DNA of 38,347 nucleotides from a virus (lineage: Duplodnaviria > Heunggongvirae > Uroviricota > Caudoviricetes), in IMG/VR virus record IMGVR_UViG_2718218452_000008, positions 1-38,347 of that record; one strand, written 5' to 3'. Every line of letters starts with the position of its first letter. Within the stretch, counting starts at the first letter, position 1. The position numbers and the translations under genes were made by a program. Below are positions 11,026-11,791 of the stretch, in pieces. The notes beneath the pieces are model-generated. The model was given only the letters and a program-made list of their open reading frames with translations, was not told where the DNA came from and did no database searches.

Positions 11026-11194
11026 CACTTATTTTCCCTCGCTCGCTTTTGCGGACCTTTTTTGTATCCGCACCACGCCCGGCGCATACCAACCACAGAG
11101 CCTTTCGGGGGGAGCTTATGGAGTGGTCAGTGTGACTTTCTCTGTGGGCAGATCGCTCCCGGGCGTTGGCTCACCCACCCAAAGGAACGTCACG

Positions 11195-11627
11195 ATGTTT
11201 GGTATTTTTGGTAAAAAAAGCCCGCAGAGCGGCAACGGAAATTAAAAAGTTTGAAAAACGCGATCTGGCACAGGTGGTGATTAACGCCGCATACCTGGTG
11301 GCCTGTGCAGATGGTGAATGTGAGGCTTCCTAGAAAGCGAAGATCGAACAGGTACTGCGTAATCAGCCTGCGCTGTACGCGTTTACGTCAGAAATTAATG
11401 CGATTAGCGCAACCATTATCGGTCAGCTGGATACGAACTTTAAAACTGGTCGTCGTGCGGCGTTACGTGAGATCGAGGATGTGAAACACGATACGCGTGA
11501 AGCGGAAGATGTGCTGGATGTGGCGGTGGCCATTGCGGAGGCAGACGGCGAAATTGAGCCGGAAGAGCGCAAGGTGCTGGAAGAGATTGCCGGTGTTCTG
11601 GGTCTTCGTCTGGAGAATTACCTGTGA
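11195..11627 (+). pseudogene. Disrupted TerB-like (tellurite-resistance TerB family) gene
   Basis: ATG at 11195 with AAGGAA Shine-Dalgarno. The reading frame shifts in an A7 run (11213-11219) and the long downstream frame (EIKKFEKRDLAQVVINAAYLVACADGECEAS*KAKIEQV...IAEADGEIEPEERKVLEEIAGVLGLRLENYL) carries an in-frame TAG near 11331. Confidence 0.5.
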
Positions 11628-11791
11628 CGGTAAAACTGCGCCTGACTGTGGCTGCACTCCTGCTGTTTCTGGTGGTGATGGTGGATTTCACCAGCAGAAT
11701 CATGTCGGTGCTGGCGGATGGGGTGCTGGTCTGCGGCATTATGGTATTGCTGTGGCCGGTGATAAAAAGAAACAGCCTGCATAATGCTTGA
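11624..11791 (+). CDS. Candidate small membrane protein (55 aa)
   Basis: GTG start overlapping the stop of the TerB-like frame (GTGA), encoding MTVKLRLTVAALLLFLVVMVDFTSRIMSVLADGVLVCGIMVLLWPVIKRNSLHNA; hydrophobic. Not in the ORF track. Confidence 0.3.
   Translation: MTVKLRLTVAALLLFLVVMVDFTSRIMSVLADGVLVCGIMVLLWPVIKRNSLHNA

Follow-up and report, generated by a model that had tools for sequence, protein, structure and literature searches.

The 38,347-nucleotide stretch of Caudoviricetes DNA considered here (IMG/VR record IMGVR_UViG_2718218452_000008, positions 1 to 38,347; hereafter the window) is a lambdoid Escherichia coli prophage of the Qin/dic type, with dicB, dicA, dicC, hokD, Q, nanS-p, a class II holin gene and lambda-like head and tail genes. 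Between its three tRNA genes and nanS-p, in the slot where Shiga toxin (Stx) phages carry stxAB, lies a short cassette that we read, with high confidence, as the phage module tciA-tciB: tciA, a gene of the TerB family, is dead through an amber codon and a frameshift in a run of seven adenines (A7), tciB is intact, and the allele is an old and widespread one that has been moved by recombination. The feature is already known: RefSeq annotates it as a pseudogene of a named phage gene family with an intact partner, and it is ordinary in these prophages. The parts of the module are the following, where PGAP stands for the Prokaryotic Genome Annotation Pipeline and ORF for open reading frame.

11195..11627, + strand: tciA (TerB-family) pseudogene, from the ancestral ATG to the TGA stop; recognized from matches of the repaired translation, and a PGAP pseudogene with 'internal stop'.
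11199..11201, + strand: TTG in the TerB frame, an alternative start for A7 alleles; the PGAP coding sequence corresponds to window 11199-11627.
11213..11219, + strand: A7 run with one extra A relative to intact alleles, which puts the ancestral ATG out of frame; from alignments.
11331..11333, + strand: in-frame amber, GAG to TAG, at Glu45 (ATG-frame numbering); from alignments.
11481..11627, + strand: residual 48-codon ORF with a GTG start and the C-terminal TerB motif; from the ORF list.
11624..11791, + strand: tciB (DUF3927), intact, 55 amino acids; from Pfam, PHROG and RefSeq (WP_000216649.1).

The suggestion of a TerB-like gene came from an earlier, sequence-only reading of the same DNA, which asked for a database search with the conceptually repaired translation and named a lack of homology to TerB-like proteins as the outcome that would speak against it. 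The search gave TerB matches far above chance. The repaired protein scored 45.7 bits against Pfam TerB (PF05099; cut-off 24.4, E-value 9.5e-12), matched PHROG 632 ('tellurite resistance') at 2.1e-68 over positions 1-143 of 143, and is 96.5% identical to TciA of Escherichia phage JLK-2012. By phmmer it also matched the solved TerB structure 2jxu in the PDB, the TerB of the terZABCDE tellurite-resistance cluster of Klebsiella pneumoniae (residues 15-137 against 21-144, E = 4e-07), a protein of the same domain and similar size. The window gene differs from that TerB in its surroundings, having no terC, terD or other ter neighbours and being partnered instead by a 55-residue DUF3927 protein. Conserved acidic residues are proposed to bind metal in the TerB family; in an alignment with the proteins of phages P1 and Pollock, ten acidic residues (E20, D23, D39, E46, E51, E92, D95, D117, E123 and E124) are invariant. 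To our knowledge, tellurite resistance has never been shown for a phage TerB-family protein.

The two lesions were defined by aligning the window with the intact tciA of JLK-2012 (92% DNA identity) and with other intact alleles. The ATG at 11195 stands behind an AAGGAA ribosome-binding site and opens the peptide MFGIFGKK, and its frame closes after only 16 codons at TAA 11243-11245; the rest of the 143-codon TerB frame continues in the +1 frame to TGA 11625-11627. The homologous run has six adenines (A6) in JLK-2012 and in L011, L012 and L014 (L003-L020 are the labels of the comparison loci that we fetched). Since the N-terminal motif M-x-G-I-x-x-K-K is kept in the aligned P1 TciA, and approximately in Pollock, the ATG with A6 is taken as ancestral and A7 as a derived frameshift. 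At the second lesion the window reads TCC-TAG (11328-11333) where JLK-2012 reads TCA-GAG. Both the A7 frameshift and the in-frame TAG had been called in the sequence-only reading, and the comparison with intact homologues that it recommended upheld them. With the TAG inside it and the ATG out of frame, no uninterrupted TerB-domain frame is left, and the window gene reads as a pseudogene of the TerB family, not as a functional member.

The amber is the decisive inactivating lesion, because an in-frame TTG exists at 11199 and PGAP calls an allele with A7 and GAG intact; the A7 run shifts the start and does not necessarily kill the gene. The TTG shares the ribosome-binding site of the ATG, downstream of which it lies, and in the A7/GAG allele of L018 PGAP translates an intact protein from it (WP_001434745.1). 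The PGAP annotation of the window allele differs from ours in the same way: with the coding sequence begun at TTG 11199, it records an 'internal stop' only, and the change in the A-run goes unrecorded. One could go a step further and regard the amber as the sole lesion, with A7 tolerated and translation from the TTG giving a 142-residue protein with an altered N-terminus of seven residues. This is the alternative that survives best, and we consider it possible while thinking it the less likely course. The TTG is in frame and 12 nt past the AGGA core of the shared ribosome-binding site, and the PGAP calls just described agree with it; the N-terminal motif has, however, been kept from the lambdoid alleles to P1 and approximately to Pollock, all of the diverged intact alleles use the ATG frame, and a TTG at such long spacing is a weak start.

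It is worth pointing out what the break has done to annotation. The 48-codon ORF at 11481..11627 is probably a by-product of the broken tciA, and the 48-position family PHROG 3920 ('unknown function') matches TciA residues 96-143 exactly (9.3e-36). That family of 'hypothetical proteins' is most likely an annotation artefact built from the GTG-started tails of broken tciA copies. PGAP also re-starts A7 alleles at a TTG without flagging it.

The second gene of the module has come through unharmed. As the sequence-only reading had it, a 55-codon hydrophobic ORF begins at a GTG (11624) that overlaps the TerB-like stop (TGA 11625-11627), so that the junction reads GTGA at 11624-11627; this gene, tciB, also has its own GGAG at 11612-11615, 8 nt 5' of the GTG. 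Its product matches Pfam DUF3927 (PF13064) at 60.4 bits (cut-off 25, 1.7e-16, profile positions 2-50 of 53) and PHROG 1470 ('TciB-like') at 1.8e-29, and it has two hydrophobic segments with hydropathy peaks at about residues 10-19 and 31-44. All of the residues that are invariant in a five-way alignment of P1, Pollock and lambdoid alleles (K4, R6, D21, F22, S24, S28, D32, G33, P45 and K48) are retained in the window TciB.

The window thus has a PHROG 632 protein, once repaired, and directly downstream a DUF3927 gene whose start overlaps its stop. The same pair adjoins in P1 (70233-70658 and 70658-70822) and in the virulent N4-like phage Pollock (10079-10528 and 10529-10690), and tblastn matches to TciA and TciB lie side by side in P7, CharmingMan and the Salmonella phages As2, FSL SP-058 and FSL SP-076; D6 gave a TciA match alone in the tblastn listing. 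In P1 and Pollock the stop of the first gene abuts or overlaps the start of the second, and in the other phages the matches are neighbours; the TerB/DUF3927 pair is thus a conserved two-gene accessory ('moron') module of phages, tciA/tciB. Six intact tciA alleles have pairwise ratios of nonsynonymous to synonymous substitution (dN/dS) of 0.02-0.11, with dS up to 0.70, and are under strong purifying selection, so the gene family is a real one, in which the window copy has been broken recently. For tciB, compared over its first 40 codons in eight alleles, that of the window among them, dN/dS is 0.12-0.26 where the dS of the pair exceeds 0.25.

The closest intact relative is that of phage JLK-2012 (JQ347801, 23804-24396), which has the same cassette in the same place (Q, tRNAs, tciA, tciB, nanS-p/yjhS, holin), with about 92% DNA and 96.5% protein identity to the window and the same GTGA overlap. 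Its tciA is intact (A6, GAG), as are the RefSeq alleles WP_000466924.1 and WP_000216636.1 of O145 RM9872. JLK-2012 differs in that its tRNAs are annotated as Asn, Thr and Gly and in the C-terminal tail of its tciB. Further away stands the tciA-tciB-tciC operon of P1 (NC_005856, 70233-70929). It encodes a TerB-family protein of the same length with 41% identity to the window TciA, directly followed by a DUF3927 TciB with 48% identity to the window TciB in the alignment, and like the window cassette it lies beside phage tRNA genes, including tRNA-Ile2(CAT). It differs in having intact genes, a third small gene, tciC, and the context of a phage-plasmid in place of a lambdoid late operon. No tciC counterpart is present in the window, where 4 nt separate the tciB stop from the gene of an STnc100-family small RNA (sRNA) and the one small ORF that overlaps there (11784-11879) does not resemble P1 TciC. 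Nor is tciC found in the annotated JLK-2012 and Pollock modules, and it therefore does not define the two-gene module. The P1 tci genes have been found non-essential by CRISPR interference mapping.

What the two proteins do is assigned by homology, on which the names also rest; the P1 GenBank record itself gives the tci name 'by homology'. Membership in a defence system was considered and rejected, the PADLOC models giving nothing meaningful: a marginal PDC-S48 match for TciA (E = 0.006, 13.7 bits) and none for TciB. Literature searches on DUF3927 and tciA/tciB returned no functional study.

The location of the module was settled by comparison with the Stx phage 933W (locus L005), whose gene order is Q, pR', terminators, pT, ileZ-argN-argO, stxA2, stxB2, esterase, holin. 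The corresponding features of the window are these.

10738..10766, + strand: promoter-like TTGCAA-17-TATTAT just 5' of the tRNAs, predicted by consensus scan.
10776..11025, + strand: tRNA trio with a CAT anticodon, Arg-TCG and Arg-TCT; from ARAGORN, the Rfam tRNA model and PGAP on identical DNA.
11075..11806, + strand: exchangeable cargo cassette of leader, tciA pseudogene and tciB; from BLAST against 933W.
11796..11968, + strand: STnc100-family sRNA gene at the right border of the slot; Rfam RF02076, 100.8 bits (gathering score 47).
12106..13956, + strand: nanS-p, a SASA-family carbohydrate esterase; from the ORF list and the PGAP product name on near-identical DNA.

By BLAST, window 10738-11074 is 90.6% identical to L005 4083-4420, from pT to about 50 nt past argO, and the homology begins at position 10738, the counterpart of L005 4083, where the annotated putative tRNA promoter pT starts. 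Homology picks up again at window 11807 (L005 5790), and the segment of 933W between the homologous flanks, L005 4421-5789, contains stxA2B2. Both flanks are thus homologous to those of an Stx phage with the cargo swapped between conserved borders, which bears out the sequence-only reading in calling this the stx-equivalent slot. Given the flank homology and the presence of STnc100 on the right in both, window 11075-11806 and the stxA2B2 segment of 933W are alternative cargos of one cassette site with sharp borders. The two share the promoter-like site, the tRNA trio and about 50 nt on the left, and STnc100 followed by nanS-p on the right, with the 933W nanS-p orthologue in the same position. 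They differ in their unrelated genes, toxin genes in 933W, and in STnc100, which in the window is shorter and lower-scoring (100.8 against 207.7 bits). The window STnc100 begins 4 nt past the tciB stop with the 3' part of the model, the last stem, largely unaligned; that of 933W begins 75 nt past stxB. The window is not that of an Stx-converting phage, its slot carrying tciA/tciB and neither stxA nor stxB in the ORF list or by BLAST against 933W, and no stx is annotated in the closest whole prophage either (covered to about window position 37500).

The cassette is far from rare. At least 30 independent complete E. coli genomes, among them many of O157:H7 and those of isolates from a giant panda, a pig and a cow, match the 801 bp at 11030-11830 with 100.0% identity, and 333 records in total are at least 99% identical to the stretch. 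Of 5426 complete E. coli genomes, 806 carry the cassette, at 3120 places in all and with a median of five copies per positive genome. The sequence-only reading had suspected a decaying cargo exchange. The decay holds for tciA, which is broken; the rest of the idea does not, since tciB is intact and the cassette, going by these numbers, is a standard alternative occupant of the slot and not the remnant of a failed exchange. Exact 35-nt searches in the same genomes gave these counts for the haplotypes at the amber site.

TCC-TAG: 959 places in 575 genomes.
TCC-GAG: 164 places in 159 genomes.
TCA-GAG: 134 places in 124 genomes.

The state of the A-run was read only from the fetched loci, which combine with the state of the codon as follows.

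A7 with TAG: the window, L006-L010 and L019.
A7 with GAG: L018.
A6 with TAG: L012.
A6 with GAG, intact: JLK-2012 and L011.
Independent Q76-to-TAG: L014.
5'-truncated with TAG, behind a different Q gene: L020.

The same amber therefore sits on several backbones: with A6 in L012, without the tRNAs in L019, and with another Q gene and a truncated 5' end in L020. This indicates that recombination between lambdoid prophages living in the same host has spread the amber allele. Such company is on record in O145 RM9872, where amber, TCC-GAG and TCA-GAG copies occur in three prophages. On DNA identical to that of the window, RefSeq and PGAP annotate a 'tellurite resistance TerB family protein' pseudogene with an internal stop, followed by the DUF3927 protein WP_000216649.1; examples of the pseudogene are ECpv15279_RS14160 (O157:H7 PV15-279) and RG29_RS22290 (strain C7). 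The pseudogene call recurs in every fetched A7/TAG copy, and WP_000216649.1 in those that share the tciB allele of the window.

Two of these loci have peculiarities of their own. In L012 (O121 GTVSS-020, locus 849-980), the E45 amber with A6 is accompanied by a W-to-TAG change in tciB that leaves 43 amino acids, and PGAP still names the product a DUF3927 family protein (WP_001344632.1). In L019 (O157:H7 PV15-279, 2113738-2120772, in a second prophage), the tRNA trio and most of the leader have apparently been deleted (locus about 3330-3390) between two short CCCGG repeats, which in window numbering lie at about 10773-10777 and about 11160-11164, and the pT-like promoter stands directly before the A7/TAG tciA.

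The leader of the cassette also varies. It contains a poly-G tract at 11107..11112 (+ strand), about 85 nt 5' of the tciA ATG, which is G6 in the window and, in a 15-allele alignment, G5 in L006, G7 in L007, G10 in L008, G13 in L009 and G18 in L010. The copies in question, from O103, O111 and other strains, are otherwise 98-99.7% identical. The tract may be a hypermutable simple repeat, or its variation may be partly homopolymer assembly error. A consensus scan found no promoter-like site around it. A structured RNA or riboswitch in the leader, which is conserved, was considered and rejected: the fold of 11026-11200 (170 nt) is not unusually stable (minimum free energy -50.8 against a shuffle mean of -53.2 kcal/mol, z = 0.58), and there was no credible Rfam match.

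The abundance of the amber haplotype invites another reading, in which the loss of TciA was selected and not neutral, tciB or an RNA of the cassette being useful in lysogens and TciA repeatedly knocked out. The amber haplotype is found at 959 places, against 164 and 134 for the two intact haplotypes that share its flanks, a separate Q76-to-TAG (L014) and a 5' truncation (L020) have struck tciA in copies with tciB intact, and tciB has a ribosome-binding site of its own. The counts are, however, dominated by clonal, oversampled lineages of enterohaemorrhagic E. coli (EHEC), tciA is 2.6 times the length of tciB and so a larger mutational target, tciB is broken too in one allele (L012), and the surrounding prophages hold many other pseudogenes. 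These four points all agree with ordinary decay, and with strong purifying selection on the intact tciA alleles besides, we hold selected loss to be improbable. A more elaborate form, in which TciA and TciB make up a two-part membrane-associated phage system that tends to lose its TerB half, time after time, and to retain its DUF3927 half, perhaps with the poly-G tract (G5-G18) as a phase-variable switch of expression, is slightly less probable again and is offered as speculation. If this form were true, it would hint at conflict or dosage selection on an uncharacterised accessory module that competes with stx for its slot.

Programmed recoding, with slippage at A7 and read-through of the amber supplying a low level of full-length TciA, seems to us very improbable. 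Homopolymeric A runs can support transcriptional or translational slippage, and both events are individually known in phages. Neither A7 nor TAG is conserved, though: the intact relatives have A6 and GAG, and the two lesions occur apart in different alleles. Besides, efficient slippage would call for a run longer than A7, the RNA structure of the leader is unremarkable (z = 0.58), and no amber-suppressor tRNA was found in the window or in the related loci scanned. A suppressor tRNA reading the TAG was in fact tried as a candidate and rejected, the window anticodons being CAT, TCG and TCT and the related loci having only Arg, Lys, Met/Ile, Asn and Gly tRNAs. As for a sequencing or assembly error, homopolymer lengths are a common fault of long-read assemblies, but the chance here is negligible: different laboratories and platforms have produced the identical 801 bp in 30 or more independent complete genomes, the TAG haplotype occurs at 959 places, and A7 is seen in seven separately fetched loci of different serotypes.

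We return, then, to a module with a dead tciA and an intact tciB, and to how it might work. In an intact copy, tciA encodes a soluble TerB-domain protein of 143 residues, and tciB a DUF3927 membrane protein of 55 residues that has two hydrophobic segments. Transcription of such a pair would start, together with that of the tRNAs, at the pT-like promoter (10738-10766), and the pair would also be part of the Q-antiterminated late transcript from pR' that would read through an upstream hairpin, listed here.

10629..10652, + strand: likely tR'-type late terminator, overridden by Q; a G+C-rich hairpin and then a T-run downstream of gene Q, with the sequence AAAACCCGCCCACAAGCGGGTTTTTTTGTG; from the hairpin scan.

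Annotated terminators are found in the equivalent Q-to-tRNA interval of 933W. The synthesis of TciA and TciB may be coupled, and by analogy with TerB-family proteins the two may work together at the inner membrane. In the window copy, translation from ATG 11195 would end after 16 codons and translation from TTG 11199 at the amber after 44; neither full-length TciA nor a TerB domain would be expected, and TciB may still be made by way of the ribosome-binding site that its gene has for itself. The broken allele probably persists through the paralogous cassette copies of poly-lysogenic strains: with several of them per strain, a relaxation of selection on a single copy is easily explained.

Two things weigh against this account. 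The amber haplotype is commoner than the two intact same-flank haplotypes together (959 against 298 places), which simple neutral decay does not predict; the excess probably comes mostly from oversampled clonal O157:H7 genomes. Moreover, of the 3120 cassette copies, about 1860 diverge in the flanks of the amber site and are unclassified in these counts.

The window locus is of little importance by itself. What it illustrates is that lambdoid prophages have in their stx slot a genuine cassette site with sharp borders, tRNA-Arg plus about 50 nt to the left and the STnc100 sRNA to the right, and that tciA/tciB is its commonest alternative cargo, often as a broken copy in EHEC poly-lysogens. The larger question is the role of a widespread, strongly conserved TerB/DUF3927 pair in P1, N4-like and lambdoid phages, a question to which intact copies are equally suited.

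Regarding the prophage as a whole, the closest match is a prophage of the bovine strain C7, next to serU/mtfA, with 99.6% identity over 25 kb. The O157:H7 prophage that holds the identical 801 bp was tried as the source of the window and rejected, the PV15-279 prophage being only a mosaic match at 76-98% in blocks. The window is itself a mosaic, 100% identical to the O157:H7 prophage in the 801-bp cassette region and only 76-98% in the other blocks. Several structural genes are annotated as frameshifted in these relatives: portal in C7, and terminase, portal, tape measure and J in PV15-279.

There are a few further observations on the flanks of the slot. Upstream, at 10549-10658, a promoter-like TTGCAA-17-TATATT overlaps the end of Q and is followed by a strong hairpin/T-run terminator, the layout of a short pR'-tR' transcript; Rfam gave sub-threshold matches only for this stretch (isrK 22.7 bits, isrJ 24.5 bits). 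The CAT tRNA, of the ileZ type, is Met according to ARAGORN and tRNA-Ile according to PGAP. In L016 and L017, from two bovine E. coli strains, PGAP annotates an 81-nt 'tRNA-OTHER' (locus 82-162), for which there is no ARAGORN call, in place of the middle tRNA (argN). On the right, the AsxR sRNA adjoins STnc100 on the opposite strand in 933W only, and an Rfam scan did not detect it in the window. Independently, TerB genes and STnc100 matches are named among the frequent neighbours of PasA and PasC in E. coli prophages by a 2026 preprint on the Pas sRNAs. One more signal lies between STnc100 and nanS-p.

11993..12011, + strand: intrinsic-terminator-like hairpin with a T8 tail, 5' of nanS-p; from the scan.

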